Origin: a virus
Lineage: Duplodnaviria > Caudoviricetes
DNA: 64,000 nt
Reading direction: 5' to 3' (one strand)
IMG/VR virus record: IMGVR_UViG_3300046318_000439
Span: 1-64,000 of that record
The notes below the pieces were generated by a model. That model saw only the letters and a program-made list of their open reading frames with translations. It was not told where the DNA came from and searched no databases. The position numbers and the translations under genes are program-made. Shown here piece after piece: positions 3,789 to 48,080 of this stretch. How positions within the stretch are numbered: position 1 is the stretch's first letter; each line of letters starts with the position of its first letter.

Positions 3789-3789
3789 A

Positions 3790-5139: not shown

Positions 5140-5140
5140 T

Positions 5141-5491: not shown

Positions 5492-5514
5492 ATTTGAGAT
5501 TTTCTTGTTTTAAT

Positions 5515-5521
5515 TATTTAT
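5515..5521 (-). promoter_or_regulatory. Late-promoter-like ATAAATA
   Basis: Intergenic, upstream of the 5491 start. The same motif recurs just upstream of other structural genes. Confidence 0.45.
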
Positions 5522-6969: not shown

Positions 6970-6978
6970 ATTTTTATT

Positions 6979-25667: not shown

Positions 25668-25699
25668 TATTAGTAATTTTCGATATATTTAGGTATTTG

Positions 25700-32528: not shown

Positions 32529-33451
32529 AACATTGCTTTTATAATGGCCTCTAAATTGTATCTTGGCTCATATTGAATGTGCCTTTTGATTTTATCTAAC
32601 ACCGGCACTCGATATTGAATATCCACGAACCCGCTAGAAAACGCTTGCTCATATGGCACCATTTTAATATTCGAAGATGATCCACTAACTGCGATTACCT
32701 TTTCTGCTAACTGAAGCATTGTCACAGGCTCAACATTATTACCGATATTAAACAGTTCACCATTTATCTCTGCTACCTTAATCAATGCATCAATAGCGTC
32801 GTTAATGTGACAGAATGAGCGTACTTGTTGTCCATCTCCATGAACAATCAAATCATCACCAGATTTAGCAGCATTAACGAACCTAGGAAGAACCATACCG
32901 AAATCTCCTAGTTGGCCTGGCCCTACTACATTGAAAAAACGTACAATGGTATATGGACATTCAGAGGTACGTATCATAAACTCCGTAAGAAGTTTGGATG
33001 TTGAATACGCCCAACGCGTTTTAGATGATGGTCCTATGTTAGCATTATCTTCTTCACTAAAAGGTCCTTCACCGTAAACTTCAGAAGTAGAAGAAAAAAC
33101 TACGTGAGTCTTTGCTTTATCAAACAAAGGAACTAATTTGTGGGCTAACTTTACATTATTGTAGAGTGTTTCTTTAGGCTTCTTATCTCCCAAAGCTACA
33201 CCAACCGAACCAGCCAAATGATATATCTTATCTTGCTTCTTAAATAACCTAAGGAGGACATCATCATCCATCTCGCCTAAGTCACCTTCTACAAACTCAA
33301 ATAGATTTTTATACTCAGCAAAATCTTCTTTATTGAACTTAGCTGTGTTTAAGTTATCAATTACTGTTACGCGATTTTGTCTGTCTTGTAGTAGTCTATG
33401 TACAAGATGTTGGCCGATGAAGCCCGCGCCGCCCAGAACTAAAATCTTCAT
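32525..33451 (-). CDS. NAD-dependent epimerase/dehydratase (extended SDR; UDP-glucuronate decarboxylase/ArnA-like), 308 aa
   Basis: GGAGFIG, SSTSEVYG, RWAYSTSK (YxxxK), RFFNVVGP, RSFCHIND. Confidence 0.85.
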   Translation of the reverse strand: MKILVLGGAGFIGQHLVHRLLQDRQNRVTVIDNLNTAKFNKEDFAEYKNLFEFVEGDLGEMDDDVLLRLFKKQDKIYHLAGSVGVALGDKKPKETLYNNVKLAHKLVPLFDKAKTHVVFSSTSEVYGEGPFSEEDNANIGPSSKTRWAYSTSKLLTEFMIRTSECPYTIVRFFNVVGPGQLGDFGMVLPRFVNAAKSGDDLIVHGDGQQVRSFCHINDAIDALIKVAEINGELFNIGNNVEPVTMLQLAEKVIAVSGSSSNIKMVPYEQAFSSGFVDIQYRVPVLDKIKRHIQYEPRYNLEAIIKAML

Positions 33452-34004
33452 AAATCTCTCCTAATGTAATCTCTTCAATATTAATACTTCTCAAATCAAT
33501 CAGTGCTTCTACGACCTCGTCTATATGAGCGATGTAGTGTAGAGTGTCTGGCTCGCTAGGTTTGTAAGCGTTTTTATCAACACATCTTTTTATGAAATTG
33601 CTATTATGCATTCCATAACCATACACAGATGGTATTCTATAGTTGATGTGCTTTAATGTACTATTATTTAGGTAGATCTCCATACACCGTTTTGCAACAT
33701 TATATGACCCTTGAGGTGTATCATTGATGTCTGCAGCTCCCTTAGAAGAAGCATTTATAAACAAAGCAGTTGGACATATTTGAATGGCTGCTCGTGTTGC
33801 GTCCATAATTGAATCCATCACCTCCAGTGGATTACTATTGATGCGTTCCGTAGTAGATGGAGATGCTAAGTGATATACTCTATCACATTCTATCTGAGGA
33901 AAAGGTCGACCCATAGGATGTACAACATAACCACGTTTTAGTAGTTCTTTAACTAAGTTACTTCCTATAAATCCACTAGCGCCAGTAACAACTACTTTTT
34001 CCAT
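33396..34004 (-). CDS. Short NAD-dependent epimerase/reductase (SDR), 202 aa
   Basis: Start corrected to MEKVVVTG (34004); TGASGFIG and YNVAK (YxxxK). Confidence 0.8.
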   Translation of the reverse strand: MEKVVVTGASGFIGSNLVKELLKRGYVVHPMGRPFPQIECDRVYHLASPSTTERINSNPLEVMDSIMDATRAAIQICPTALFINASSKGAADINDTPQGSYNVAKRCMEIYLNNSTLKHINYRIPSVYGYGMHNSNFIKRCVDKNAYKPSEPDTLHYIAHIDEVVEALIDLRSINIEEITLGEIYEDFSSGRRGLHRPTSCT

Positions 34005-34483
34005 ACTTCTCCATCCCACCCCAATCTAATATACCTACACCCTTTAACTTGTAATCCTTCTTTTATGTTCTTTACAAACGTCTGTCGGTCTGGTGGATCA
34101 AAAAGTGGTATGTCTAAAGCCTGCATTAACAATTGATCATCATCCAATAAATGACCTCTTCCGCAAATAGAATAACAACCATTAGATCCAGCATTGACAA
34201 ATATTACCGATCCGTGGTGCTCTGCCCAACCTTTAACATTCAATTTTATTTGCTCGTAGGCTTTGTATAAAACAAATCCAGCAACTCCATATACAATCAC
34301 TCGCTTGCCCTGAGACGCTAAACCAGCTGCAATATTAACCATTGTAGGTTCTTGTATTCCGCAGTTAATCACTCTTTCAGGATATCTACTTACAAACTTT
34401 TTAAATCCCCACATATCAGCATGTAGAAGATAAATGTCATTATTTCCCGCTCTAGCTAAGAATGTGTCCAAAGTACTTCTCAT
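33992..34483 (-). CDS. Transketolase-like, pyrimidine-binding subunit, 163 aa
   Basis: PERVINCGIQEPTMVNIAAGLA..G motif. Confidence 0.8.
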   Translation of the reverse strand: MRSTLDTFLARAGNNDIYLLHADMWGFKKFVSRYPERVINCGIQEPTMVNIAAGLASQGKRVIVYGVAGFVLYKAYEQIKLNVKGWAEHHGSVIFVNAGSNGCYSICGRGHLLDDDQLLMQALDIPLFDPPDRQTFVKNIKEGLQVKGCRYIRLGWDGEVWKK

Positions 34484-35175
34484 AACATACTATCCAATTC
34501 TTCTTGTGTGCTAATTTTTCTATAATGCCATTTCTGTACATTTTCCGACATGCATTGCACGCCGTTACCCTTCGTTGTATTGCAGAACACCACATTGGGG
34601 TGGTGACTGCACAGGTGGTCGAACGCTTTCCTCAATTCCTGCTTATTATGCCCATCTACCTCTTGTACACTCCAGCCGTAGTTATCAAAGAAAGATTTGC
34701 ACGGATCAATCGAAACAATGTCCTTTGTACAACCAGTGACCTGAGCGTTATTATTATCAATGGTTACAAAAATGTTACTAATCTTATGTTGACCTATAAA
34801 CTGTATCGCTTCTAAAATATTGCCCATTTGAAGACTTGCATCACTAAGATTCACCCAAACACGTTTAGGATTTACTAAAGCGATTCCAATTGCAACTCCA
34901 AGAGCATTACCGATTGTTTCGTCAGCATAATCTACAAATGATATTTCATCATGCTTAACTCCAACATTCAGTTGTTCAATATTGTCGATTAACCCCATAT
35001 CCTTCCACACGAGATAATATGCCTGAGCTCCAAACGGTTTTCCAATTACAATACCATCCGTGGGTTTGACATACTGATCTTTAAATAAAACCTCAATGTA
35101 ATCCAACATACTTAATGCTGAAGGTATGTGAGATAGTTTATTGTGGTATGAGTAGGTTAGTAATTTATTCTTCAA
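34480..35175 (-). CDS. Transketolase-like, ThDP-binding N-terminal subunit, 231 aa
   Basis: HIPSALS, SDASLQMG...EA...IDNN, GW.V.EVDGH, TTKG.GV..WH; TTG start overlapping the upstream stop. Confidence 0.8.
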   Translation of the reverse strand: MKNKLLTYSYHNKLSHIPSALSMLDYIEVLFKDQYVKPTDGIVIGKPFGAQAYYLVWKDMGLIDNIEQLNVGVKHDEISFVDYADETIGNALGVAIGIALVNPKRVWVNLSDASLQMGNILEAIQFIGQHKISNIFVTIDNNNAQVTGCTKDIVSIDPCKSFFDNYGWSVQEVDGHNKQELRKAFDHLCSHHPNVVFCNTTKGNGVQCMSENVQKWHYRKISTQEELDSML

Positions 35176-36193
35176 TTTGTTTTGGGGGCTTCACTTTATT
35201 AACATAATAATCGCCAGAGCAAATATCCCAGCGACATATTGAACCACTATTATGCAATATTACCATTTTGGTTACTGCTAGGGGATCAGTTACTAAATTA
35301 GTATAAACATCTTTTGGATTCTGCTCTTGCAGGAAGTTGGTCATTGGTCTAGAGCACACAAATACATTACCATCTCCATTTAGATACATGGTGCGCTTAC
35401 CCGCATCGCATTGCCATCCAGTAAAATCAACCCCTCGTTTAAATAGATCATTAGTTGAATATTCAACTCCATCCACTTTATACATTCGTTGGGTTTTGTT
35501 GTGTTTTTTGTAGAAAGCTAAATGACTGTCTCTAATATCATCACTATATTCGTAAGCGTAATAATCGTATATCATCTCACTATTTAATATATTTTTATAT
35601 TGTAAATACTTCTCTACTCTTTCATAGAACTCATTCAATAATTCTTTAGGTATATTTTCCAACATAATATCTAGATTGTATATTGGAATACCCTTAGCTT
35701 CAAGCATCGCAAAGTTATCTTCAAAGTCTTTCAGCTTATATCCGCCACCACGCGTTTTCAATTCCATGAAGTGGTAGGATATACCAATGCGGTCAAAAAG
35801 GTGTATGATCTTCTCTAACTTAGCTGGAGGTAAAGACAAATTGGTTTGCATTTCAATAAACGCTTCTATTCCAGTTTCTTTTGACTTTTGTTTAATGTAG
35901 GATAAAATGTCATACACTCTGTTATGCCGGGTTGCCTCTCCTCCATGGCAATAAAACACAACTCGTTTAAACTTAACCTTGTTAAAGAATATAAACAATT
36001 TGTCTATGGATGTGATAATATCTTCATATGCATAATGCTTGCCAGAATACCAATAGCAATACTCACACTTTAAGTCGCAAGCTTCCGTGATTCGTATTTG
36101 TACGTGATACTCAGAGGCTATGGCATCAGTTCTTCTCTCGCCCTCAATAATCTCATAGCTCTTTGTTGGCTTTAATCTGCGATAGACATTCAC
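35165..36193 (-). CDS. Radical SAM protein, 342 aa
   Basis: CDLKCEYC, HGGEAT; C-terminal FTGWQC...GDGNVFVC...C; GTG start overlapping the upstream TGA. Confidence 0.85.
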   Translation of the reverse strand: MNVYRRLKPTKSYEIIEGERRTDAIASEYHVQIRITEACDLKCEYCYWYSGKHYAYEDIITSIDKLFIFFNKVKFKRVVFYCHGGEATRHNRVYDILSYIKQKSKETGIEAFIEMQTNLSLPPAKLEKIIHLFDRIGISYHFMELKTRGGGYKLKDFEDNFAMLEAKGIPIYNLDIMLENIPKELLNEFYERVEKYLQYKNILNSEMIYDYYAYEYSDDIRDSHLAFYKKHNKTQRMYKVDGVEYSTNDLFKRGVDFTGWQCDAGKRTMYLNGDGNVFVCSRPMTNFLQEQNPKDVYTNLVTDPLAVTKMVILHNSGSICRWDICSGDYYVNKVKPPKQIEE

Positions 36194-36996
36194 TGGGAGG
36201 CCTCTTTGCTTCTACTAACGTATGTCATTAGTTCTTTATAGAACTCTTCATCATTCATTTCTCGGCCTGTTATCTTGAAGCTTTTTACTCCAGCTTCCTT
36301 CAACTTTTTGAGATGAGGTGAATCGATATCCATACAGTTATATTTACTTTCTTTATTAAAGTCAAATCCTTTAATCCAACACTCCTCTACTTCCTTACTG
36401 TACGGACGACCTGCTGTGTTTTCATCTGCAATTGCCTTAAAGTGCTCATCAAACCGTGAACAATTCCAAATGCATGTATCATTCACCATCACTTCCCATT
36501 TAGTTTTATCTAGTTCTTCTGAACGCTTATCAAATATATGTTCATATCTAGGTACAATCCAGTCATAATCTTTTTCTAGTTGTTTATAGAAGTTAATGTC
36601 TTCGTCTTGTAGAGGAATATTTAACAGTCCCATTCCAGTGATACTGTATATTAAATCATATTTGGGATAGTTAGCTCTAATATATTTACGCAAATCTTCA
36701 TTAACTAAAATAATAGCGTTACCATCTTTATGAAACTTTTCCAGTAGATGATTGCCTACTGGATCATTAAGATCAATTCTATGATTAGTAAACGTGAGGG
36801 CTATACTAATACCTTTATTATAATAGTATTCAATCATACCATCATTATAGTAAATATCTCGGTTGATGCGCCCACCATTCCACTTGCATTTATTAATGCC
36901 ATCATACACAACTAGTTGATCGTTGCCGTTGTACTGAGCTAAAAACTTAATCAGAGGAATGGTTTTACTGAACGCGCCAGCTAAAAGATATCTCAT
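36190..36996 (-). CDS. Peptidase U32-like (UbiU/UbiV/TrhP-type Fe-S) protein, 268 aa
   Basis: E.MVND.C...C, later Cys residues and SFKITGRE (U32 KIEGR-like) near the C-terminus. Confidence 0.6.
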   Translation of the reverse strand: MRYLLAGAFSKTIPLIKFLAQYNGNDQLVVYDGINKCKWNGGRINRDIYYNDGMIEYYYNKGISIALTFTNHRIDLNDPVGNHLLEKFHKDGNAIILVNEDLRKYIRANYPKYDLIYSITGMGLLNIPLQDEDINFYKQLEKDYDWIVPRYEHIFDKRSEELDKTKWEVMVNDTCIWNCSRFDEHFKAIADENTAGRPYSKEVEECWIKGFDFNKESKYNCMDIDSPHLKKLKEAGVKSFKITGREMNDEEFYKELMTYVSRSKEASQ

Positions 36997-36997
36997 A

Positions 36998-37753
36998 TTA
37001 CATTAAAAAACACTTGTCGTGATTGCATATGCCATCATGCTTTGTTCGATAGCAACAATTATACAATTCTAAATTGGGTCCATATAGAAAATACTTACCA
37101 TTGTACATGCATGGCTTACCTCGAGGACTGAAGTTGGGATCTCCCCACACTTCAGAACGGAACTTGCCTAAGCGCTCTACATTTTCAAACTGAATAAACT
37201 TAGTGTAATTGGAGTCCCGTCTTAAGGCATTAAATTCTTCTAAAGCCCCATTGGATATACCATCTCCAAAGTCTGATATTGGTGTTAGAAATAAACTCGG
37301 ATGATTATCTGTTAACTCTTTCACCTTTAGATAGTATTTAATAGCTTCTTTACCAGTGTACATTACATCAATCACTTTTATGTTTACTGGATTGTTATTA
37401 AACAAATCGTCAAGCTGATCCAATCTTATCTCTGTAGGATGTATGCTTATGTTGATCTGAAATGGATGTTTGATCCGCTTCATTACAGCAACACTCTTTT
37501 TGCTAAAGTTAGTTTGTATTACAAACGGAACGCTGAACTCATTAAAACATTCTATAATATGTTCAATGTGGGGATGAATGAAAGGCTCACCTCCAAATAT
37601 AAAAACTTCTACGCCAGGATACTTTTCCCCTAATCCTTTAATAAACTCGCGGAGCACATTCTTATCCATTTCAGTGCGCAATGACTGATCTAAGTTGGTG
37701 CAGTAAAAACACCCAAAATTACATTTAAGAGTTATTTCCCATTCAACTAGCAT
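36998..37753 (-). CDS. Radical SAM protein, 251 aa
   Basis: CNFGCFYC, FGGEPF, QTN; C-terminal Cys cluster. Confidence 0.85.
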   Translation of the reverse strand: MLVEWEITLKCNFGCFYCTNLDQSLRTEMDKNVLREFIKGLGEKYPGVEVFIFGGEPFIHPHIEHIIECFNEFSVPFVIQTNFSKKSVAVMKRIKHPFQINISIHPTEIRLDQLDDLFNNNPVNIKVIDVMYTGKEAIKYYLKVKELTDNHPSLFLTPISDFGDGISNGALEEFNALRRDSNYTKFIQFENVERLGKFRSEVWGDPNFSPRGKPCMYNGKYFLYGPNLELYNCCYRTKHDGICNHDKCFLM

Positions 37754-38648
37754 CTCGCACCTTTAGTTGTTTAAGTAACCCATCGCAATTACAGGCTCGA
37801 TGAGGACACGTCATAGGAATGGTTTTAGTTATTCTTTTGAAATAGTCTGGATCATCTAATAAATTAGTACGAGCATGCTCCATACAGAATTTAATTACTC
37901 CCCCATCCACATCTATCTCATAGTTGTTATTGTAACAACTCCATCCCTTAAAGTTAGTAAGCTTCTGATTATATACTTGATAGTCATTAAACACATCATC
38001 ATCATAACATAGATCTTTTTCAAAATCTTCTAAAAACTTAAAGTACTCCCAAAAATCTTGTCTGTAGTTAAATAGCGTGTGTACGTTCTTTCCGTAAATA
38101 AAATGAGGATGAACTTTGAGACCATCAATCTTGGCACATATTTCAAACATCTCTTTTATTAAAGGCCATAATTTTTTATCATGATGAAGCATGATGTTGA
38201 CCTTACATTGATACCCACGACTTATCATCAACTTGATATTAGATATAAATCTATCTCGATCTGTACAATCAGCTGGATGATAAGAAAACAAAAAAGCTAC
38301 TCTATCACTATACTGGGGATGATCGGTGAAATCTTTCTCTGCATTAGTAACAACATATACGCGGTTAAATTTATCAATCGTGGCAAGTTGGTTTAGGATG
38401 TAATAATAATGAGGGTTGAGGGTAGGTTCTCCACCAAGCAATCCTAGATTGAATGGTAAACTACTTCGTCTTAGGGATTCAATCACCCCATCAATAACTT
38501 CTTTCTTTCCCAGCTTACCCCACTTCTCACCATACTCATTTCTAGCATAGCAGTATGAGCACTTTAACTGACAAATAGTCAAAGTATCCCAATGCACATT
38601 GATGTGATCAGGATTCTGCTGATTGTGATATTGTTTAGAGTATTTCAT
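37743..38648 (-). CDS. Radical SAM protein, 301 aa
   Basis: CQLKCSYC, LGGEPTL; C-terminal FKGWSC...C...CPHRACNCD. Start moved to MKYSKQ (38648). Confidence 0.85.
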   Translation of the reverse strand: MKYSKQYHNQQNPDHINVHWDTLTICQLKCSYCYARNEYGEKWGKLGKKEVIDGVIESLRRSSLPFNLGLLGGEPTLNPHYYYILNQLATIDKFNRVYVVTNAEKDFTDHPQYSDRVAFLFSYHPADCTDRDRFISNIKLMISRGYQCKVNIMLHHDKKLWPLIKEMFEICAKIDGLKVHPHFIYGKNVHTLFNYRQDFWEYFKFLEDFEKDLCYDDDVFNDYQVYNQKLTNFKGWSCYNNNYEIDVDGGVIKFCMEHARTNLLDDPDYFKRITKTIPMTCPHRACNCDGLLKQLKVRDAS

Positions 38649-39249
38649 TTTTAGGAAAGGAGATGTTATCTCCTCCATCTATTGTTTGGTAATATAAAAC
38701 TTTACTTAATGTTTTGATGCTGGAAGCTTTAGATGCTGCATGCATAGTTAGTTTTATGTCGTTGTGAATGTCGCCATCATTAGGAAAGTTAAAATCACAA
38801 ATCACAGACCGTTTGTATATGTGCTGAGATAGTTGTAGATGTTCTATATTAACACTATCCATAAATTCTTTAGGAGTTAACCATGCATCTTTATATAGAG
38901 TCATAAATGTTAGCATGTTTGGGGTTTCATAACGCGGACAATAATTTCCAGCGATCAAATCAGCATCTAATACTTGATCAAAGAACCCTTCTACTAAGTA
39001 ATCATCATCTTCTAAGAAATATACATACTCCCCTTGAGCTGCTGATAGTAGCAGCTGATAAACTCCACAAAGAGTATCTGTCTTATTGTAGTAATAAGTT
39101 ACTTGAGGATGGTTTATTTCCAATATATCCATACTATCATTATTAACTATAACCTCCACATCAGACGTAATTTGAGCAAGCACACTCTCTAGGCAACGAG
39201 TGAACAGCTTAGGTCTATTGTGAGTAGGTATTAGTATGGATAGCTTCAT
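38635..39249 (-). CDS. Glycosyltransferase family 2, 204 aa
   Basis: SILIPTHNRP..RCLESV..Q, A.GEYVYFLEDDD. Confidence 0.85.
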   Translation of the reverse strand: MKLSILIPTHNRPKLFTRCLESVLAQITSDVEVIVNNDSMDILEINHPQVTYYYNKTDTLCGVYQLLLSAAQGEYVYFLEDDDYLVEGFFDQVLDADLIAGNYCPRYETPNMLTFMTLYKDAWLTPKEFMDSVNIEHLQLSQHIYKRSVICDFNFPNDGDIHNDIKLTMHAASKASSIKTLSKVLYYQTIDGGDNISFPKNEIL

Positions 39250-40400
39250 CGCACATCAGTGTTTTTTCTATAGAACGTCACATACTTAATTTTATCTCCA
39301 GGTTCTGGAAATACTTCTGTATCCTTGGCTACTTCTTTCTCAATACCATCGCAAATATAAAAGTGCTTACACTTAAGACAGCTAATATCTTTTTGATAAA
39401 AACGCGCTCTATGAGTGGCACAAGCATCATACGCCAATCCAAGCTTTTCTTCTGGAGTATAAGGTTTACTAACATCGATGGTGTATGTGTACATTTCTCG
39501 ATTCCAATCCCGCACATCATAAATGTGTTGATAGGTTCCAGTGACGTACTTCTCATACCCCTTCATGTAACAGAATGGTACATATCGAACATTTACTGTG
39601 ATTCCATTTTGAAGCTTGTCAATGCATTTTTTAATACCATCTGTCATATCTTTATAAGTGGCATTTTTAAAATCGATTACATTGAAATCCCCCCAATAAT
39701 TTAACGTTAGAAAGTTAGCTTCTAATGGGTTGATAGAATTGATTAGATCTGCATATTCGTTTTCAAGTTGATGGTAATTCCTGTAATATACAGTGGCATT
39801 GGTACGAACAATCATACCAAGTTCTTTTGCGTTCTCTATTCCTTGCAATATTCTTTTGAATGAACCTTTACGTCCAGTTATTTCATCGTGAATCTCTTCG
39901 GTCGCTCCATGCAGACTAAACAATATTTCCTTTAGTCCTCTATCTTTTGACTCCTTCAAAAACTCCATATTAGCAAATTTACCACCATGCGATAAACAGC
40001 TAACACTACTAAATCTTTCATTACAATAGTCTAGTATTTGAAACCAATCTGGGCTGACGGAGCTTTCACCTCCACTAAGATCTACCTCTGTAATACCATA
40101 TGCTAGTAAATGATCTGCACGTTTCTTGACAATTTCAAAAGGAGTCTTAATATCCAACATGTCTTTATAATAGCAGAACTCACAATCATAATTGCAGAAT
40201 GTTCCAGTATCCAATCTAGCACGGTTACATGATGGAGTACTATAATCAATGTCAATACCAGCTACCCCTAACTCAGATAGAGCGTTGGGAGTGGCAGATC
40301 CAAGAGTCGCAACACGGTTTTCCGACATTCTATGCACGGCTTTATTTTCCAGCATGTTGTGGAGCTCGATAGGAATTATTTTACGAGGTTTATTACTCAT
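39246..40400 (-). CDS. Radical SAM protein with C-terminal Cys motif, 384 aa
   Basis: CNYDCEFC, SGGES, FSLHG; C-terminal CLKCKHFYICDG. Confidence 0.85.
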   Translation of the reverse strand: MSNKPRKIIPIELHNMLENKAVHRMSENRVATLGSATPNALSELGVAGIDIDYSTPSCNRARLDTGTFCNYDCEFCYYKDMLDIKTPFEIVKKRADHLLAYGITEVDLSGGESSVSPDWFQILDYCNERFSSVSCLSHGGKFANMEFLKESKDRGLKEILFSLHGATEEIHDEITGRKGSFKRILQGIENAKELGMIVRTNATVYYRNYHQLENEYADLINSINPLEANFLTLNYWGDFNVIDFKNATYKDMTDGIKKCIDKLQNGITVNVRYVPFCYMKGYEKYVTGTYQHIYDVRDWNREMYTYTIDVSKPYTPEEKLGLAYDACATHRARFYQKDISCLKCKHFYICDGIEKEVAKDTEVFPEPGDKIKYVTFYRKNTDVR

Positions 40401-41334
40401 TGTTTACCGCCATTTGTTCTTTAACGTAACCAACAAAAAAATCATTAGGAAGAAGTTCTAACCCATTTAAATTAGAATCAATATCTTCTCTTCTTCTATC
40501 AATTCCCCTGCATTCGTAATCAATTTCATACACAACATTTTTTCCATACACGGCACACTCAACGATAAACCTTGGACTGCAGTCTATCTGCCATCTTGTA
40601 GGGGTGTATATGTACGTATCAAATTTCTCAAAGATGTTTTTAATTGGAGCTCTAACAACTTCTACATTTGGTTGCTTAATACTTTCATACAAGTCTGGAT
40701 TGTTTGTGACAATAAGATATTTCTCACATATTTTTTTATCTATAATATGTTTGATGTTATCTGCAGCAGTGGCTCTCATGCTGGTGGTTAGATACAGTAA
40801 TGCAGTGTTTGTTAAGGATTGCTTTGGGGGTTGATATCTTCCCCATAGTATCTTTTTAACATAATCTACTACTTTAATGTTTAGCTCCTCAAACCGTTCT
40901 GGATATAGTTTAAAGTCTTGCATTAAATGTGTGCGCTTGATTGTTTTATTATTATGAAAATAACCAAAATTATTTTCTGAACACCTTAACAGAAATACAT
41001 TATCAGCATACATTACACAATCAAGGATGCGCCACGAACCATCTACTATACAAACATTATTGGCTAATATTATCTTGGGACGATAACACTCAAACGTGTT
41101 GTCTAATATATCCCTCAACTCTTTGTCGTTGAAATTATATTTGTCCTTTAAAGCTGTGGTGAATATTTCTTTGGTAATTCCATCTGATAAAAGTACAGCA
41201 CATTTAATATTGTTAATACTACAAATATAATAATAGTCTATCATCTCGTAAAGATGACCAGACACTCCATGAGTATAAAAGAATGATGTTGTGAATACTA
41301 AGTCATAATCCTTTAGATTGAGTATCTTCGACAT
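40393..41334 (-). CDS. Hypothetical protein, possibly degenerate GT-B glycosyltransferase, 313 aa
   Basis: Coupled ORF; C-terminal DCSPRFIVECAVYGKNV resembles the GT-B E/D-x7-E...G.pV motif. Confidence 0.45.
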   Translation of the reverse strand: MSKILNLKDYDLVFTTSFFYTHGVSGHLYEMIDYYYICSINNIKCAVLLSDGITKEIFTTALKDKYNFNDKELRDILDNTFECYRPKIILANNVCIVDGSWRILDCVMYADNVFLLRCSENNFGYFHNNKTIKRTHLMQDFKLYPERFEELNIKVVDYVKKILWGRYQPPKQSLTNTALLYLTTSMRATAADNIKHIIDKKICEKYLIVTNNPDLYESIKQPNVEVVRAPIKNIFEKFDTYIYTPTRWQIDCSPRFIVECAVYGKNVVYEIDYECRGIDRRREDIDSNLNGLELLPNDFFVGYVKEQMAVNNE

Positions 41335-42224
41335 TATTGCTTTTCCTTATAAAAGTTTAGCATAAAGTCAGCATGACAATACTCTCTGGGGCATGTTACG
41401 TTCACGCAGGCATTCTGTTTATTGATTCGAATCGGCATAGGAGCTCTCGTGCACGAGTTAACTATTGTACCATCAGATAAGATTTCATATAACAAAGCCT
41501 TACAACGATATCCCTTGAATTTGACCATGTCATCTTTCAAGGCATTGAATATTGGAACATGCACTTCCCGACCGTCGCTATATTGAAAGCGATATGTTTG
41601 TTTATCAGCTATGTTCTTGAGTCTAGGTTCAAATATCTTATAAAACTCATCATTATACGTTATTGTATTGCCTGGAGTGGATAATAATATATTGAGATCG
41701 TATCTTACGCCATGGCGGTCGAACTGATCGATCATGTCTAATATCTGAGGCCAGTCTTTTGGATTATCTGATAAATTTATATGACAGTAGAAGTTCTTGT
41801 CTTTAAAAGCTATACACTTATCAAGAAATGTCTGATCGTAATATTGTGCATGGTATGAGGCTGCTAGTCGTATCTTATCGCTGACAAATGTCTGCTGCAA
41901 GAAATGCATGGGCTTTGATAGATTTGTTTTAATTTCTATCAGTGTACACTTAGACATATCAGATAGTTGCTGAAGGATGTCTATAAAGTTTGGATGAAGA
42001 GTGGGTTCTCCGCCATACAGATCTACTTCAAAATCTGTATCAATCATAGAAAGTCTTTGAAGTACTAGCTTGTGTTTGGATGGCGATGTATCTTTAGAAT
42101 ATCGCTCTACCATTTTGTCTGCAGCGTTACAATAGGTGCACTTAAAGTTACACCAATCTACAAGGAACCATTCAAAGTGTATTGTGTTATAATTTTCAAT
42201 ACCAACATTATCTATAGCGGTCAT
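41334..42224 (-). CDS. Radical SAM protein, 296 aa
   Basis: CNFKCTYC, YGGEPTLHP, KTNLS; C-terminal FKGYRC...DG...C...CPREYC. Confidence 0.85.
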   Translation of the reverse strand: MTAIDNVGIENYNTIHFEWFLVDWCNFKCTYCNAADKMVERYSKDTSPSKHKLVLQRLSMIDTDFEVDLYGGEPTLHPNFIDILQQLSDMSKCTLIEIKTNLSKPMHFLQQTFVSDKIRLAASYHAQYYDQTFLDKCIAFKDKNFYCHINLSDNPKDWPQILDMIDQFDRHGVRYDLNILLSTPGNTITYNDEFYKIFEPRLKNIADKQTYRFQYSDGREVHVPIFNALKDDMVKFKGYRCKALLYEILSDGTIVNSCTRAPMPIRINKQNACVNVTCPREYCHADFMLNFYKEKQ

Positions 42225-42230
42225 TTTGCT

Positions 42231-43148
42231 TTATGGGGATAGCACTTGATCTGGCTGAACTTGTTCGTACCCTAAAATTTCAAACACATTGTGTGGTATC
42301 TGTGGCATTTCAGCTTGCTCATCGAGTGCTGTTAAGGCAGTGTTAATCTTAGACAAGCGCTCCAACTTCGAAGCAAACTGAGTAGTAGGAACTATGTTAG
42401 TATACTCATATTCAGTAATGTACTGGTTGTGTTTTACTATTTGAGGTATATTGATAGTTCGTTCGAGTACATTAATATACCCATTCTCAATTATATCTTC
42501 AAACTTAATGTAATGAACATTGGGTCCTCCCAACTGCCTCATCACGCACATATTTAACAATGACTCCACATACGATTGTCCAACCATATCCTCCACCAGG
42601 AACCATTCTGCAGTGGCTTGTGGGGTATTATCAATTAGATATGTTATGGAAGGATTACGTTCTATACACAAAACCACAACATTGGTTTCTCCTATATCAG
42701 CTCTAACCCGCTCAATAAAGTTTTTAGAGAACAGGCCAGAAACCACATGCACATCAAAGGGACTATTTTCATATGCTTGCATGAATTCTTCATACGATCC
42801 CCCTGTGTTTTCTGGAGGTAGTCCTAAATCTGGAGTAAGATTGTTAAACTTGTCTCCATAGTAGGTTAGTTCTGGATTTGTGAAAGATTTGAGAGTGTCA
42901 ATATTTCTAACAAATGTCAACCCTCCATCAGCAGCGTATAGCAACGTTTCCGATCCATTAGGATCTTCAGAGGAAACTGGTTTATATACAAGTTCGGAGT
43001 CGGCATTATATACTTCAATTGGAATAGTATGAATATTTGCTGTGTAGTTTCCAATTGAATAATTGTCGTAGTTATTAAAGGCGCGGGACACTTCATAAGC
43101 AATCCCTGGCTTAAACGCTCCTACCGACCCTGTTACAAATATTAACAC
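42231..43148 (-). CDS. Hypothetical protein, weak sulfotransferase/P-loop-like resemblance, 305 aa
   Basis: AGGAG RBS and GTG start; N-terminal FVTGSVGAFK, later IERNP and IKFEDII. Confidence 0.45.
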   Translation of the reverse strand: MLIFVTGSVGAFKPGIAYEVSRAFNNYDNYSIGNYTANIHTIPIEVYNADSELVYKPVSSEDPNGSETLLYAADGGLTFVRNIDTLKSFTNPELTYYGDKFNNLTPDLGLPPENTGGSYEEFMQAYENSPFDVHVVSGLFSKNFIERVRADIGETNVVVLCIERNPSITYLIDNTPQATAEWFLVEDMVGQSYVESLLNMCVMRQLGGPNVHYIKFEDIIENGYINVLERTINIPQIVKHNQYITEYEYTNIVPTTQFASKLERLSKINTALTALDEQAEMPQIPHNVFEILGYEQVQPDQVLSP

Positions 43149-43149
43149 A

Positions 43150-43551
43150 CTATCTCCTTAGATACTCTTCTACTATTGAGTTAACAGCATCCCTATCATT
43201 GTAATTGGTTAGCGATTGTAATTTACTAATAATGCCTGTATACTCTTTTTTTTGTTCTTCTAGACGCTTGATATTATCCTTAAGACTTAGATATATCTCT
43301 AAATCATTAATTAAGTATTCGTCCCCTGTCTCGATAATCTTAATGTAGCATTCTTCTTTGTTTTTATCGGTAATAATTATTCCTCTATCGAGAAACTTAT
43401 TATTAATTAGCATTATGGAAATAAAGTCTAGCAGTTTAAATGTTAATAAATCATCCCCAATTATCCCTCGCACTTTTATTTTACATGCGGCTGCCGCTTT
43501 ACCAGCATAGGTACTACTATCAATACATTCAACTTCTTTATACTTCTCCAT
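43150..43551 (-). CDS. Hypothetical accessory protein, 133 aa
   Basis: Its ATG overlaps the TGA of the Cys-repeat gene; helical/coiled-coil C-terminus. Confidence 0.65.
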   Translation of the reverse strand: MEKYKEVECIDSSTYAGKAAAACKIKVRGIIGDDLLTFKLLDFISIMLINNKFLDRGIIITDKNKEECYIKIIETGDEYLINDLEIYLSLKDNIKRLEEQKKEYTGIISKLQSLTNYNDRDAVNSIVEEYLRR

Positions 43552-44309
43552 CAGTCACCTCTTAACATATCCACTGGTAATTTGTCATAATCTACTACGT
43601 AAAATCCATTGTCCGCTTTACTTACAGCATCAGCATATTCTGTGCCTAATAACTCTTGAGCCATAACTCCAACATATGTGGTATCTTTATCCCAAATGTA
43701 GCTAAAGGAATATAATTTTATTCCATGCTCAGAGCCAACATACTTAATATTTTCTTTTAATCGTTTGTCGCTATAGTTGCAATTACATGTGCAAGAGTAA
43801 TTACAATTACATGTACAATAATTACAATTGCATGTGCAATAATTACAGTTGCATGTACATACACCAGCAGCCCCTTGTATATCCGTTATGAGACTATTAA
43901 TGTTGGCAGCTGTGATTGTGCTTCCAATTGATACGCTTGTTGCACCAACATATCCCGCAACGGTTGGCCACAATATTAATTGATTGGCTCCATCGATGTA
44001 TCCATTATTAGGAGGAGATGCTTGAACGTTAAGAGCTGCTCGAAAGTTGTTTATATCGCTAGCAGTAATCGGGGAGCTAGGCGTATATGCCACAGTACCA
44101 ACACGACGTCGTGATCGCTCAGCATTGACAGCAGCAGCAAGTTGCGTATATTGGGATGTTGCAATTAGTTGTCCAGCACTTACATTTGTCAGTGCATGAG
44201 TAGTAGCATCTGATGCGTTTGTGCCATAAACAACAATATATGTTCCACTAAAGCCAGATGCGCTTGTGTTATTGAATGCTGGGACTGGGTACGGGGTGTA
44301 CGTCGCCAT
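43551..44309 (-). CDS. Fibre-like protein with (CTCNCNY)x4 core and C-terminal peptidase S74 intramolecular chaperone, 252 aa
   Basis: GV-CTCNCNY-CTCNCNY-CTCNCNY-S-CTCNCNY directly followed by SDKRLKENI...GVMAQE...VDY (S74 signature). Confidence 0.85.
   Translation of the reverse strand: MATYTPYPVPAFNNTSASGFSGTYIVVYGTNASDATTHALTNVSAGQLIATSQYTQLAAAVNAERSRRRVGTVAYTPSSPITASDINNFRAALNVQASPPNNGYIDGANQLILWPTVAGYVGATSVSIGSTITAANINSLITDIQGAAGVCTCNCNYCTCNCNYCTCNCNYSCTCNCNYSDKRLKENIKYVGSEHGIKLYSFSYIWDKDTTYVGVMAQELLGTEYADAVSKADNGFYVVDYDKLPVDMLRGD
43773..43859 (-). repeat. Four 21-bp coding heptad repeats encoding CTCNCNY
   Basis: 87 nt = 29 codons. The copies differ at synonymous positions, which suggests selection on the protein motif. 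Confidence 0.9.
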
Positions 44310-44323
44310 TTAATTATTCCTTG

Positions 44324-44701
44324 TTAAATTTTTCCTGCTAAGAAGTTTAAATCTTCTTTTGCTTTTGTTTCCGCAATAAACTTTTCATAATCATCTAATT
44401 CTGATGTGATAAAGTCTAATGTTTGTTGATCAGGTTCTTTCATCATATCTACAGCAGAACCGCTTTCCACAACATAACGTACTAGGTCTGCTAAAGAAAA
44501 CCCTAATGCAGCAGAAACCATTTCTATCTGCTCACTAGCTTCAATGGTTTCCCGGCCACCTTTCAAAGCAACCTGCTCCAACGTACGTAATCCTATACCG
44601 AAGCTTTCCATCAATACTGCTCCGACTCCGGAATCTTCTTCTGCAATGTCTTTAATTGCACCAAAAATAATGTCTAATTTATCTTGTATACTCATTTTCA
44701 T
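44324..44701 (-). CDS. Acidic helical hypothetical accessory protein, 125 aa
   Basis: Coupled between a radical SAM gene and the Cys-repeat gene; AGGA RBS. Confidence 0.65.
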   Translation of the reverse strand: MKMSIQDKLDIIFGAIKDIAEEDSGVGAVLMESFGIGLRTLEQVALKGGRETIEASEQIEMVSAALGFSLADLVRYVVESGSAVDMMKEPDQQTLDFITSELDDYEKFIAETKAKEDLNFLAGKI

Positions 44702-45560
44702 TTTCCTTTTCTTTAAAATCGTGGAATTTTAAAGCACTTTCATCATACTTGTATGTTGTAACGTTACCTTCGTCTGTAAAATACGTTTTGGTAGCATGCA
44801 CAACACCGCACCCACTACACATATCGCAGAAAAACTCACAAACTGGTATACTATTATCCCTATTTATCCAATCAGTTCTGAAGCGATTTTTACCGGCTAA
44901 TAACAGCTGTTGATCTTCATCTGAAAGGGTATCCCACGCTATTGACGTAATTACACGCAACGGCTTGAATGTTTTAATAATTCTGTTTATGTCATCATAA
45001 AAAAACTTAATATTATTGTTATGGATAGTATAACGTACTCTGAAACCCATCCTATTTTTCATTAATTTCTTAAATACTGTAATCATGGCTGATGTTGAAT
45101 CAGACCCATCATGGAATATTCTATTACCGTTTCCTACACCATCAAAACTAACATCAATGGACATGAACCCCCTCTTATAGAAAAAGTTCTCCTTTACTTC
45201 TTGCGTAAACTTATCGCTTAGAAATTTAATGCCATTAGTCTCTAAATTAAAATGCACATTCTTTTTCTTGCTGTATGCATACTCCATTAGATAACATACA
45301 TTTTCCCACTGCAATGTTGGTTCCCCTCCAAACAACACTATTAAAGTTTGTTTGTCTGGATCCTCTCTTTCGATAATACCATCAACATATTGTTCAATAT
45401 CTTGCTTTGTTAGAATTTGGGGAGGACGATTCGCCAAATCTTGATAACAATGCTTACATGCCAAATTGCAAACGTTAGTAAAATAAATGACATTAACAGC
45501 TGTATTTTCTTCTACAGGTTTGTCGTCTTTTCTTATAAAGTTTGCAATGATCTCGTTCAT
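44679..45560 (-). CDS. Radical SAM protein, 293 aa (short C-terminal Cys motif)
   Basis: CNLACKHC, FGGEPTL, ETNG, SFDG; CEFFCDMCSGC. Confidence 0.88.
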   Translation of the reverse strand: MNEIIANFIRKDDKPVEENTAVNVIYFTNVCNLACKHCYQDLANRPPQILTKQDIEQYVDGIIEREDPDKQTLIVLFGGEPTLQWENVCYLMEYAYSKKKNVHFNLETNGIKFLSDKFTQEVKENFFYKRGFMSIDVSFDGVGNGNRIFHDGSDSTSAMITVFKKLMKNRMGFRVRYTIHNNNIKFFYDDINRIIKTFKPLRVITSIAWDTLSDEDQQLLLAGKNRFRTDWINRDNSIPVCEFFCDMCSGCGVVHATKTYFTDEGNVTTYKYDESALKFHDFKEKENENEYTR

Positions 45561-45862
45561 TGTATAATCATTTGATGAGAATTCTTATATCGATCATCTT
45601 TAGGACGCGATTGAGCCTCTTTGATAATGTGAGTCATATTATCTAAAAACTTAGGATAGTCAATTTGATATTCGAATAGATGGCCGCGTTCCTGATAATT
45701 AACATACTTACTATCTACACGGGCTTTACCTTTTTTAGCTTCTTCAATTTGCACTGCTAGCTCATCTACAGTCAAAGCATTTCGTGAATCATGCTCTACT
45801 TGACTCATTTCTACTCTCACTGGTATGTCTAGTATACTTTTAAAACGTCTAGGTTCACTCAT
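45557..45862 (-). CDS. Hypothetical accessory protein, 101 aa
   Basis: Overlaps both flanking radical SAM genes (TAATG and ATGA coupling). Confidence 0.65.
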   Translation of the reverse strand: MSEPRRFKSILDIPVRVEMSQVEHDSRNALTVDELAVQIEEAKKGKARVDSKYVNYQERGHLFEYQIDYPKFLDNMTHIIKEAQSRPKDDRYKNSHQMIIQ

Positions 45863-46986
45863 TAGTTTCTACACTCCACGCCTTCATTTTCGACCCCAAC
45901 GTTCTCAATATAATGCAAGATTAAATCTTGGAATACTGGAACGTCTCTGCATTCATCTACCACTCTCATACCCTGCTCGTATGTAATCATAAACAATTCA
46001 CATATACTATCAAGAGGTTTGTTGTCGTTCATAATCTGGGAGTATGTACAGCCAGCATTACAAACTTGTCTTAGCTTACATTCCACACACTTGTCAAAAC
46101 TGTGAGGGCTGAACTTCTCTTGAAAATATTTAAAGTTGTATTGCTCATCAATCTTCATAATCTTTTTACTTGCAAAGCGAGCACAAGGATAAAATTCTCC
46201 ACTGCTCATAAGCACGCCGCCATTGGTACCAGCAAAACATCCTGTTTTACGTTTACCTTTTACTAGACCATACAACGTATCTAAAATAGCAAGTCTCAGG
46301 AATCCAACTGAACACGGAATGCCTGCTTTTAACTTTTCAATATATCGATCAGTTAATCTAATTAATTCTGTACGATATTCTCTGATATCATCAGCCGTCC
46401 ATACATCGTCTCTCACTAAGCTGAAATCTGGATGTTCAATCCCCCAGTCCAACAAAAACTCAAAGTTTTCTGTCATGTCCCTTACATTACCAGGCCAGAT
46501 CATAACTTTGCAACCGTTAGTCAAGTTGACTATAATATCTTTTTTGTATTTGTACAGTTCAAGAATGCCATCAAACAACTTACCAGTTTCTGGGTTTGTG
46601 TTTTCTAGCAGTGGTAGGAGAGGGCGCGTTTCGTTTGAACTCATTCCATCAAAAGACCAAGATACGCCCACACCATTGTCTGTTAGGTACTTGGCTTTCT
46701 CTGCATCAATCATTGTCAGGTTAGTAATAATGTTGATACCTTTACACTTAGGATCTGACTTGAGGTAAGGAACAGCGTGCTGGATTAACTCCCAGTTCAA
46801 TAAAGGTTCCCCGCCAAAGAAGCTAACGTGATATGTGCTATCTCCAGAATTTTTCATCAACACAGGTAAGTCTTGCATGCCTTTGTCAAATACCTCTTTA
46901 GTCATCCAAGTAGGCTTATTAGCAACATAGCAATACGGACATCCTAGATTGCATTTCTCTGTTACTGAAATTTCTAAAGTGAACAT
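45862..46986 (-). CDS. Radical SAM/SPASM-domain maturase-like protein, 374 aa
   Basis: CNLGCPYC, FFGGEPLL, SFDG; SPASM: CFAG...GEFYPC...CVECKLRQVCNAGC...C. Confidence 0.9.
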   Translation of the reverse strand: MFTLEISVTEKCNLGCPYCYVANKPTWMTKEVFDKGMQDLPVLMKNSGDSTYHVSFFGGEPLLNWELIQHAVPYLKSDPKCKGINIITNLTMIDAEKAKYLTDNGVGVSWSFDGMSSNETRPLLPLLENTNPETGKLFDGILELYKYKKDIIVNLTNGCKVMIWPGNVRDMTENFEFLLDWGIEHPDFSLVRDDVWTADDIREYRTELIRLTDRYIEKLKAGIPCSVGFLRLAILDTLYGLVKGKRKTGCFAGTNGGVLMSSGEFYPCARFASKKIMKIDEQYNFKYFQEKFSPHSFDKCVECKLRQVCNAGCTYSQIMNDNKPLDSICELFMITYEQGMRVVDECRDVPVFQDLILHYIENVGVENEGVECRN

Positions 46987-48080
46987 TGTTTAGCCTCAAC
47001 TTTAATAGGGATAATCTTAGAGTTCAGAGCTTTACGTAAAGCATAATGAATAACTTCGTTCATTTTAAACACTTTACATACCTGCCAATTGGATGTATGA
47101 TCACTCCACTTTTCAATATACGTTTCTTTTTCGCTCTTTTCAAACGTAGCAGCATTACACTTCATACAGAATTGAGAATCGCACGATTGACAATCAAGCG
47201 GTTGATTCTTTAAGGCATCCTTAAACATCTCTGTTTTCTCTTTGATCAGAGCATCGATATCTGGTACATTGCGAATGTTGCCTAATACGTGTGCGTGGGA
47301 TTCCTTATACATGCATCCATGACAAGGACTAATGTCACCGTTCAAATCCACGCTGACATAATTGATACCAGCAGAGCACAAGGCTCGCGATTGTTGGAAC
47401 CATCCAAACTTTTCTGGTGGAAGTTTATTTGTGTAGATATACTTTGCTATCTTTGTCAACCCAACTTTAAGTTCTTCCATGTGAACAGCAAATTCTTCCT
47501 GTGACAGAGTAGAATACAAGTCAGGAGTAGGGAAGTAGTTATCCGCCATACTAATGACGTCAAGAAATGCTTCGTAAATTAGATGAAAATGCTTAGCTGT
47601 TAATACTGATTTCATATTAACGTTCAGACCATTTTGTTTAGCAGCAAGATAGTTAGATTTAACTAACGCTGAAGATGGGTTACCTACCTTATCAATTCTC
47701 GTAATGTCGTTTACAGGTTTACCATCATATGATATTTGAAGGCGCAATCTGCCTTGACCTAATTCTTTATGCAACTGAACTAATTCAGCCATGTACTTCT
47801 TTAGATACACTCCATTTGTGTAAAAGAAGAAAGAGAAGTTAGGATCGTGTTTGTACTTATCAATCACCCCTTTGCAAAATTCCCAGTTTACAAATGGTTC
47901 TCCACCCCAAAAATACACGTCCTTTTTAGGATCGGATATTTTGGACATGAATTCGTCAATGTTGTCGAGAGTAACTGATGTGTTTTCTTCAAATTCAGTG
48001 GATAGACCGCACTCATACCCCTCTGAACAGTATGTACATGCTAGATTGCACGTGCTTGTTACGTTAATGTCAATAACCAT
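46974..48080 (-). CDS. Radical SAM/SPASM-domain maturase-like protein, 368 aa
   Basis: CNLACTYC, FWGGEPF, YTNG, SYDG; SPASM: CSAG...GDISPCHGC...CQSCDSQFCMKC...C. Confidence 0.9.
   Translation of the reverse strand: MVIDINVTSTCNLACTYCSEGYECGLSTEFEENTSVTLDNIDEFMSKISDPKKDVYFWGGEPFVNWEFCKGVIDKYKHDPNFSFFFYTNGVYLKKYMAELVQLHKELGQGRLRLQISYDGKPVNDITRIDKVGNPSSALVKSNYLAAKQNGLNVNMKSVLTAKHFHLIYEAFLDVISMADNYFPTPDLYSTLSQEEFAVHMEELKVGLTKIAKYIYTNKLPPEKFGWFQQSRALCSAGINYVSVDLNGDISPCHGCMYKESHAHVLGNIRNVPDIDALIKEKTEMFKDALKNQPLDCQSCDSQFCMKCNAATFEKSEKETYIEKWSDHTSNWQVCKVFKMNEVIHYALRKALNSKIIPIKVEAKQCSL

Follow-up and report, generated by a model that had tools for sequence, protein, structure and literature searches.

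The question raised by the locus described here is why a bacteriophage should carry several radical S-adenosylmethionine (SAM) enzymes in one run with a small protein that contains a cysteine repeat. The locus lies within the leading 64 kb of one contig, which is 202 kb long and has a G+C content of 39% (IMG/VR record IMGVR_UViG_3300046318_000439, positions 1 to 64,000); this whole stretch of 64,000 nucleotides is called the window below. The source is a freshwater T4-like phage. The gp6-like wedge protein of its baseplate shares 35-39% identity with the counterparts in Caulobacter phage Cr30 and Sinorhizobium phage phiM12, the cyanophages being further off, and near-identical DNA is present in freshwater and aquatic metagenomes of at least 12 studies. 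Seven open reading frames (ORFs) follow each other on the minus strand from 48080 to 43150, and neighbours overlap by 1-23 nt or leave a gap of at most 14 nt. They encode, in this order, two enzymes of the radical-SAM/SPASM type (enzymes 1 and 2), a 101-aa protein, a third radical-SAM enzyme (enzyme 3), a 125-aa protein, the Cys-repeat protein of 252 aa and a 133-aa protein. An initial annotation of this DNA had described such a tightly packed run of seven ORFs, and the ORF listing confirms it in strand and position. The answer which we favour, at a probability of about 0.6, is that thioether cross-links to Thr, Asn or Asp are introduced by the SPASM enzymes into a C-terminal tract of the small phage protein, (C-T/P-C-N/D-C-N-Y/F)n.

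The candidate substrate carries the heptad CTCNCNY starting at residues 151, 158, 165 and 173, with one Ser inserted. The 21-bp copies coding for the heptads differ at synonymous third positions only (codon listing), and it is therefore the peptide which is under selection. A model of the protein was built with AlphaFold2 (AF2) using 24 homologues. It has a disordered beginning (residues 1-27), an N-domain of three helices (about 30-150), the tract (151-179) and a Peptidase_S74 part which begins at S180. By the predicted local distance difference test (pLDDT) the N-domain scores 68-89, the repeat about 35 and the S74 part 72-91. Invariant residues of the N-domain are E64, R67 and R68, and a conserved helix, I-x-A-x-x-I-N-x-L-I, abuts the core and ends three to five residues ahead of the first Cys. 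Directly after the tract follows SDKRLK (residues 180-185), in which S180 and K185 form a Ser/Lys pair five residues apart. The Peptidase_S74 match reaches 24.2 bits against the Pfam cut-off of 22, and the S74 part of the model matches an intramolecular chaperone in BFVD (E 4.6e-6, root-mean-square deviation 3.3 A over 72 columns). The protein thus carries a Peptidase_S74 intramolecular chaperone domain, which is predicted to be self-cleaving. A fold search with the whole model returned nothing from the PDB and the S74 part only from BFVD; the N-domain is without a known fibre fold.

Between close relatives the enzymes are 60-84% identical and the Cys-repeat protein, which is present in one to four tandem paralogues, 35-58%; the N-domain is therefore fast-evolving and the tract fixed. 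With an invariant sequence beside a variable N-domain, a predicted disorder, and a local motif that is kept over strict periodicity, the tract has traits that would be expected of a substrate.

The three enzymes all match Pfam Radical_SAM (PF04055) at 48-53 bits, the cut-off being 29.5, and enzyme 1 also passes the SPASM cut-off of 21.5. Invariant residues were read from alignments with relatives down to 25-35% identity. For enzyme 1 they are C11/C15/C18 (CX3CX2C) and C235, C253, C297, C300, C305, C308 and C335; for enzyme 2 C12/C16/C19 (CX3CX2C) and C250, C268, C300, C303, C309, C313 and C329; and for enzyme 3 C31/C35/C38 and C241, C245, C248 and C251 (CX3CX2CX2C). Enzymes 1 and 2 belong to the SPASM subgroup and possess the complete set of seven Cys for two auxiliary 4Fe-4S clusters; enzyme 3, with a single auxiliary site, falls outside the seven-Cys definition. 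The three are deeply diverged and can be aligned with each other over about 80 N-terminal residues only (32% identity). In distant loci the enzyme 1 type directly precedes the Cys-repeat gene.

The best NCBIfam model for all three is the PapB ranthipeptide maturase (NF047865), with 77.7, 138.8 and 85.4 bits for enzymes 1, 2 and 3, the match of enzyme 3 spanning the N-terminal two thirds only. Other peptide maturase models that score well are SCIFF, QhpD and nif11. Across the three enzymes the SCIFF maturase model TIGR03974 gives 56-80 bits and the CXXX-repeat maturase model TIGR04115 40-61 bits. The cut-offs, 340 bits for PapB, 425 for SCIFF and 350 for the CXXX-repeat maturase, are not reached. 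The best PDB match for all three is CteB (5wgg), in alignments which begin at CteB residue 101; for enzyme 2 the E value is 4.7e-15 and the SPASM cysteines are aligned. The initial annotation had called the first two enzymes radical-SAM/SPASM and the third radical-SAM, and had seen them as akin to peptide maturases that form thioethers. Pfam and the invariant Cys sets agree with the former, and the matches to PapB and CteB with the latter.

Evidence from comparative genomics comes from the linkage between the repeat protein and the enzymes. ORFs with a Cys repeat were gathered from viral contigs, species-representative genomes and metagenomes by protein similarity and by degenerate DNA patterns, and those with at least three CxCxC(Y/F/W/H) units were counted, which gave 153 distinct ORFs. 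A radical-SAM-like ORF is found within 4 kb for 120 of these and within 600 bp for 81; another 32 lie on contigs too short to judge and one has a single long flank. Among the 153 there is no Cys-repeat ORF that has two flanks of at least 4 kb and lacks a radical-SAM gene. The N-domain is at least 60 residues long in 121 cases, of which 113 belong to one BLAST-connected family; they form 41 clusters at 40% identity. The gene order varies by lineage, being rSAM1-rSAM2-x-rSAM3 here and rSAM2-x-rSAM3-rSAM1 elsewhere, and minimal loci (for example L036, L042 and L089) contain a single SPASM enzyme or two, with no sugar genes visible. An independent, precomputed Pfam annotation of another contig shows an identical gene order. 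The 185,579 species genomes of bacteria and archaea contain only four Cys-repeat matches. One of the four is a Clostridium contig, where a 1200-aa ORF is followed by a 142-aa protein with a Cys tail beside an enzyme of PapB type (184 bits).

The reverse test was done with a profile of enzyme 2, which retrieved 78 viral loci. Relatives of at least 32% identity are present in 36 viral loci, and in 26 of these the repeat gene lies within 8 kb. The other ten are accounted for as follows: five are at a contig end, L218 has a degraded copy (it is the same contig as L077), L241 has a variant grammar, phage CPt10 has its repeat gene elsewhere in the genome, L242 has it 20-37 kb off on the same contig (in L036), and L254 has an actual identity of 29%, just under the limit. 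In 50,697 GenBank phage records, homologues of enzyme 2 occur in 17; of these, 15 are Campylobacter records, and they coincide exactly with the 15 records that have a 534-aa repeat protein. Megablast of the module region against the GenBank phages gave no match. For this clade the unit consensus, obtained by enzyme-only retrieval and thus free of sequence bias, is C-(T 66%/P 17%)-C-(N 58%/D 32%)-C-(N 90%)-(Y 71%/F 20%).

Enzyme relatives at 22-27% identity adjoin other Cys grammars: (CT)n, CPCECE, CxxC and CSGxC tails. The (CT)n tails are preceded by the same kind of helix, and the CxxC arrays end proteins of 850-2000 aa. The enzyme next to CSGxC scores best on the CXXX-repeat maturase model (202 bits), and the enzymes of the other grammars score best on PapB. 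The enzyme clade and the repeat grammar thus change together, as an enzyme-substrate relation predicts. The repeat-enzyme pairing is near-obligate, statistically tied and widespread. The initial annotation had proposed that repeat proteins occurring mostly without radical-SAM neighbours, or the reverse, would speak against a common system; the linkage holds both ways. Since the pairing is found in every relative that can be checked, we consider it probable that these phages staple the Cys-repeat protein enzymatically.

Some members of the wider collection should be mentioned for their own sake. Proteins of about 190-205 aa which end in (CT)n are found beside a PapB-like SPASM enzyme (209 bits) in L265 (5965-9181), L269 and L270, and in L265 a gene resembling B12-binding radical-SAM methyltransferases also follows. 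In the locus of the 28-unit repeat protein (L025, on the contig of L152 and L243), ORFs resembling acyl carrier protein, dehydratase and ketosynthase lie between the radical-SAM genes (1947-3691), which hints at acylation in this lineage. The idea of one enzyme per Cys position was rejected as a firm reading, because the same heptad occurs in loci with one or two enzymes.

The family to which the repeat protein belongs is large. Residues 1-182 have matches in at least 633 clusters at 90% identity, and with a profile of the N-domain only (residues 1-150) 553 representatives at 50% identity are recovered, the top matches being without a Cys tract in about a quarter of cases. The repeat counts span 3 to 28, and units of 7 and 8 residues are mixed. 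The shared denominator of the family is an N-domain followed by a C-terminal Cys tract. What comes after the tract varies: the 143 complete proteins comprise 25 with a tail of full S74 size, 48 with a 12-residue stub, SDxxLKxxIxYM, 17 that end at the tract and 53 others. The stub (as in L008, L011, L024 and L035) is the first S74 strand without the remainder; conceivable explanations are a remnant, a follower peptide, and a piece that a paralogue with S74 completes in trans. Several distant members (L010, L018, L024, L042, L051 and L036) begin with M-A-C-(N/T/G)-G-H followed by more Cys or His, possibly a second site for metal or modification; the motif is absent from the 252-aa protein of the window. 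In a close relative (L077, 12665-13090) the repeat gene is broken. The first 71 codons are intact; further on, a deletion within the gene has taken out the tract and put S74 out of frame. Either this copy is a pseudogene or the repeat has collapsed in the assembly.

For the location of the protein we turn to the Campylobacter phages. The 2010 paper on CP220 and CPt10 counted 11-12 radical-SAM genes and noted, within CPT_0180, a repeat of 21 bp, and did not connect the two (PMC2853527). By sequence comparison CPT_0180 is the Cys-repeat protein of the CP220-like phages. Its homologue in phage IBB_35, gene 3-9 (1605 bp, 60,318 Da), is listed among the proteins of purified virions identified by electrospray ionization tandem mass spectrometry, with 2.6% coverage (PMC3322345). 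By analogy with this distant homologue the repeat protein of the window may also be located in the virion. The Firehammervirus phages of Campylobacter (CP220, CPt10, CP21 and IBB_35) resemble the window in that both enzyme 1 and enzyme 2 have homologues there (30-37% identity) and that a repeat protein is present, here of 534 aa with six CxCDCNY units. They differ from it in that the genes are dispersed, with enzyme 2 tens of kb off and enzyme 1 2.3 kb downstream, and in that the repeat protein has no S74 domain and continues after the tract in a long tail containing Cys.

The mechanism which we propose is as follows. The repeat protein would be made late, together with the enzymes, and its N-domain and the helix abutting the tract would present the disordered Cys tract to them. 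Each enzyme would cleave SAM and abstract a side-chain hydrogen from a neighbouring Thr, Asn or Asp, and the carbon radical would be captured by a Cys sulfur to give a thioether link at a non-alpha carbon (ranthionine-type). The formation of thioethers to neighbouring side chains is the known chemistry of CteB, PapB, NxxcB and CrpC, and the same chemistry probably applies to the tract. The S74 domain would then drive trimerisation and cut itself off at the Ser180/Asp181 junction, and the cross-linked Cys tract would become the C-terminal end of a virion appendage encoded in the host-recognition cluster. We infer this order of events, the choice of substrate, the trimer and the virion location together with the chemistry. 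The full picture, a ladder of thioether cross-links, possibly then binding metal, which dedicated SPASM enzymes install in the Cys-heptad tract of a virion appendage, is tentative and we lean slightly against it as a whole.

The surroundings of the module bear on the alternatives. The seven genes form the upstream third of a gap-free minus-strand array of about 17 kb, from 48855 to 31878, and all eight genes with CX3CX2C (radical-SAM) in the 202-kb genome sit within 35165-48080 (Table 1). The initial annotation had described the run of seven genes, which is real, and had missed that the array includes five more genes for radical-SAM enzymes as well as sugar enzymes. The rest of the array also contains two transketolase-like halves, genes for epimerases/dehydratases, a PIG-L deacetylase and ORFs of 313, 305 and 268 aa, and in many loci these genes are co-conserved downstream of the Cys-repeat gene. 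The 384-aa radical-SAM enzyme has as its best match the sactipeptide maturase AlbA (67 bits). The first gene of the array encodes a protein resembling UDP-glucose dehydrogenase (UGDH), which lies directly upstream of the first SPASM enzyme; this position is kept in close relatives (synteny), and the gene may belong to the module. A UGDH gene is also present in Campylobacter phage CP220 (L086, 6669-7439), about 1.5 kb upstream of the rSAM2 homologue.

Table 1. Features of the module and of the array in which it lies (positions in the window)
Feature	Position	Strand	Remarks
Truncated UDP-glucose/GDP-mannose dehydrogenase-like protein, 247 aa	48112..48855	-	Pfam UDPG_MGDP_dh_N and central domain; phrog_9148; first array gene
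Radical-SAM/SPASM enzyme 1, 368 aa	46974..48080	-	Pfam Radical_SAM 52.8 bits, SPASM 28.2 bits
Radical-SAM/SPASM enzyme 2, 374 aa	45862..46986	-	Pfam Radical_SAM; most PapB/CteB-like of the three
101-aa ORF	45557..45862	-	Translationally coupled to enzymes 2 and 3; kept in closer relatives only
Radical-SAM enzyme 3, 293 aa	44679..45560	-	Pfam Radical_SAM; single C-terminal 4-Cys auxiliary motif
125-aa ORF	44324..44701	-	Lineage-specific; synteny
Candidate substrate, 252 aa	43551..44309	-	Helical N-domain, (CTCNCNY)x4 and Peptidase_S74
21-bp x4 tandem repeat encoding the Cys heptads	43773..43859	-	Tandem Repeats Finder score 98
133-aa all-helical hairpin protein	43150..43551	-	phrog_25260
Remaining array: five radical-SAM genes, sugar-type enzymes, unassigned ORFs	31878..43148	-	Gap-free continuation
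Radical-SAM gene, 296 aa	41334-42224	-	
Radical-SAM gene, 384 aa	39246-40400	-	
Glycosyltransferase of family 2 (GT2), 204 aa	38635-39249	-	In the rest of the array
Radical-SAM gene, 311 aa	37743-38678	-	
Radical-SAM gene, 251 aa	36998-37753	-	
Radical-SAM gene, 342 aa	35165-36193	-	

Fibre-like genes flank the module on both sides, in agreement with the earlier placement between tail-fibre genes, and it adjoins a VrlC-like DUF4815 baseplate gene. The position corresponds to the "host recognition cluster" of pelagic T4-like phages, for which radical-SAM cassettes have been mentioned and left unexplained (PMC7029224). A motif scan for the T4 late promoter TATAAATA found no enrichment and no copy within the region, and scans for sigma-70 promoters and terminators gave background level only. 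A look-up of RNA runs for this DNA returned none. Further away in the window, the minus-strand stretch 1338-10845 encodes four large proteins in succession (829, 449, 483 and 1288 aa), which are rich in RCC1-like beta-propeller repeats (phrog_4219, phrog_7220), one of them having fibre repeats of collagen-like type as well; probably they too take part in host recognition. A 1237-aa collagen-like tail fibre protein (21885-25598; PHROG fibre matches with E 3e-134) is encoded downstream of the radical-SAM array. The sole large plus-strand gene of the region (25697-29047) codes for a multidomain protein of 1116 aa with two glycosyltransferase-like parts and one methyltransferase-like part.

The small ORFs had been suggested to be recognition or scaffold factors, and possibly a winged helix of the type found in PqqD and in the recognition element (RRE) of peptides that are made on the ribosome and modified after translation (RiPPs). 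The AF2 model of the 133-aa protein is a helical hairpin bundle (pLDDT 89), and with this all-helical fold its identification as an RRE was rejected. A fold search with the model found generic helical hairpins only, with Z at most 6.8, which is under the noise level for helical proteins. A homologue (22-30% identity) follows the Cys-repeat gene even in distant loci, and the protein is possibly a chaperone or an adaptor. Its sole family match is phrog_25260, and searches of the ESM atlas, made for this protein and the 101-aa ORF, were of no help. In Pfam (E up to 10), NCBIfam and PHROGs there is no family match for the 101-aa or the 125-aa ORF. Profile comparison of these two families with the small ORF that comes after enzyme 2 in distant loci gave an hhalign probability below 1%, that is, no detectable relative; both are lineage-specific.

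It should be noted that several points speak against enzymatic cross-linking of the tract. The modification itself is read from gene content, motifs, linkage and the placement of the enzymes. The enzymes belong, as judged by sequence models, to no named NCBIfam family, all scores being far under the cut-offs. The N-terminal RRE segment, the first 100 residues of CteB, is absent from all three enzymes in the 5wgg alignments, and neither an RRE nor any other recognition domain was found in the enzymes or the 133-aa ORF. Co-folding of enzyme 2 with three 4Fe-4S clusters, SAM and residues 122-183 of the repeat protein gave a score of 0.02 against a mark of 0.32, which decides neither way. Many of the loci come from related T4-like phages, and the counts given above are not independent events. 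The virion evidence concerns a distant homologue at 2.6% sequence coverage. The S74 fusion is a minority form (25 of 143, about 17%). The array holds five other radical-SAM genes and sugar enzymes, and some or all of the radical-SAM genes may serve another pathway. Finally, the CxC motif is a classical metal ligand.

The last point is the starting point for an alternative in which the tract is not modified at all. It would be a metal-binding or disulfide-locked needle of a trimeric fibre, comparable to the HxH iron sites of T4 gp37, and the radical-SAM genes would build something else, for example an unusual sugar. Their nearness to the tract gene would reflect no more than a shared place in the host-recognition cluster. 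An alternating C-x-C-x-C-x-Y would indeed face all Cys and Tyr to one side of a strand, metal binding is suspected also for the product of the archaeal CrpA system discussed below (PMC13692751), and the array offers a sugar pathway of its own with its UGDH-like, GT2, transketolase, epimerase and PIG-L genes and five non-SPASM radical-SAM genes. The linkage, however, survives in loci that are divergent, rearranged or minimal and have no visible sugar genes, the enzyme clade shifts with the repeat grammar, and in NCBIfam the enzymes resemble peptide maturases and not the radical-SAM enzymes of sugars or nucleotides. The mixing of 7- and 8-residue units would moreover spoil a strict strand register. 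We regard this alternative as rather unlikely. The fibre itself is a separate matter: the initial annotation had placed the repeat at the tip of a trimeric fibre, a claim which is based on the S74 domain and does not extend to the majority of the family, and the N-domain matches no fibre fold.

According to a second alternative the repeat protein is the precursor of a released product, a RiPP-like toxin, signal or superinfection factor, with the N-domain as leader and the S74 part or the stub as follower. The leader-core-follower architecture, the tandem paralogues (one to four per locus), the members with only a stub (48 of 143) or with their end exactly at the tract (17 of 143), and the bacterial contig with the Cys-tailed protein beside a PapB-like enzyme would all suit it. 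It is nevertheless improbable, as the invariant core and the hypervariable "leader" are the opposite of what is typical for RiPPs and the array has no gene for a protease or an exporter. Known S74 domains belong to trimeric fibres and spikes, the gene lies among fibre genes, and the Campylobacter phage homologue was detected in purified virions.

Glycosylation is a third possibility to be considered. The tract would be an acceptor, through S-linked Cys or the N-linked Asn of N-Y-C, for the glycosyltransferase of the array, while tailoring of the sugar would fall to the radical-SAM enzymes. In glycocins, Cys is S-glycosylated by enzymes of the GT2 type, and a GT2 gene is present in the array with a full set of enzymes for sugar nucleotides. 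The gene for this 204-aa GT2, however, does not adjoin the tract gene and is missing from the minimal loci, and the enzymes that do flank the tract gene are SPASM types of the peptide maturases, which leaves little probability for this explanation. That the protein is not a substrate but an iron-sulfur donor or electron carrier for the eight radical-SAM enzymes, as its high Cys density and its many iron-sulfur neighbours might suggest, is very improbable, being a poor fit with the S74 fusion, the hypervariable N-domain, the tandem paralogues, the repeat counts of 3 to 28 and the homologue detected in the virion.

If cross-linking by the SPASM enzymes is the true explanation, it would be the first case of cross-link chemistry installed by enzymes in a structural protein of a virus, and RiPP-type radical chemistry would extend from secreted peptides and one archaeal protein to virus particles. 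Phages would have a new means of hardening or shaping their host-recognition structures. It would also explain the load of radical-SAM genes in the Campylobacter Firehammerviruses and in the aquatic and pelagic T4-like phages, a question which has been open since 2010. The cultured Campylobacter phages are a tractable experimental system, and enzymes without an RRE that would act on a simple motif of seven residues could be of interest to peptide engineers. A large protein family without a name is in any case defined by this analysis.

We have found no paper in the literature in which radical-SAM enzymes of phages are linked to Cys-repeat structural proteins, and comparison has to be made with other systems. 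The S74 fibres and spikes (K1F endosialidase, T5 pb1 and the GA-1 neck appendage) share with the 252-aa protein the S74 domain, its Ser/Lys pair and its fold; in contrast to them the mature part of the phage protein would be short, at about 180 residues, is without any known fibre fold and has a Cys tract as its end. The CXXX-repeat system (TIGR04115/TIGR04119) likewise has a radical-SAM/SPASM enzyme beside a target with tandem Cys repeats of a different grammar, and to our knowledge the chemistry of its maturation is uncharacterised too. QhpD is a SPASM enzyme that makes Cys-Asp/Glu thioethers in a lasting structural subunit, as is proposed for the phage system, and its model TIGR03906 is among the top matches of enzyme 2 (87 bits, below the cut-off of 453); its substrate QhpC differs in having no repeat tract and in being a subunit of a cellular enzyme (quinohemoprotein amine dehydrogenase gamma). 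PapB/PapA (freyrasin) and CteB/SCIFF are the best-scoring characterised families and have the same seven-Cys SPASM set. The acceptor logic of PapA and SCIFF, Cys with Asp or Thr, has a parallel in the phage heptad, where residues of the Asp/Thr type are also present. The phage enzymes differ from them in their scores (78-139 bits, below the cut-offs) and in the missing RRE, and the phage repeat in a spacing which is not CX3D and in a candidate substrate of 150-500 aa as against peptides of about 45 aa. Seen by strict RiPP criteria, the phage module has a leader-like conserved helix which abuts the core, no RRE was found, and there is no protease besides the predicted self-cleavage of S74.

The closest precedent is CrpC, a SPASM enzyme of Methanococcus voltae which installs ranthionine thioethers on the 28.8-kDa Cys-repeat protein CrpA; the paper, published in September 2026, makes no mention of phages (PMC13692751). 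In both systems a SPASM enzyme (TIGR04463 in the archaeon) is encoded beside a protein, not a short peptide, with a tandem Cys motif at the C-terminus. CrpA and the phage protein both have an N-terminal recognition domain, which is putative in the phage, and a tract whose structure is predicted with low confidence. CrpC has an RRE, which the phage enzymes lack, and these score at most 63 bits on TIGR04463 against a cut-off of 525. The CrpA repeat has 17 residues with C-x-x-Q/D and the phage unit seven, CxCxCNY; new, too, are the occurrence in a phage, the fusion to S74 and the number of three enzymes. The phage module is a candidate variant of the principle demonstrated for CrpC, and its novelty lies in the repeat grammar, in enzymes without an RRE and, in some members, in the S74 domain.

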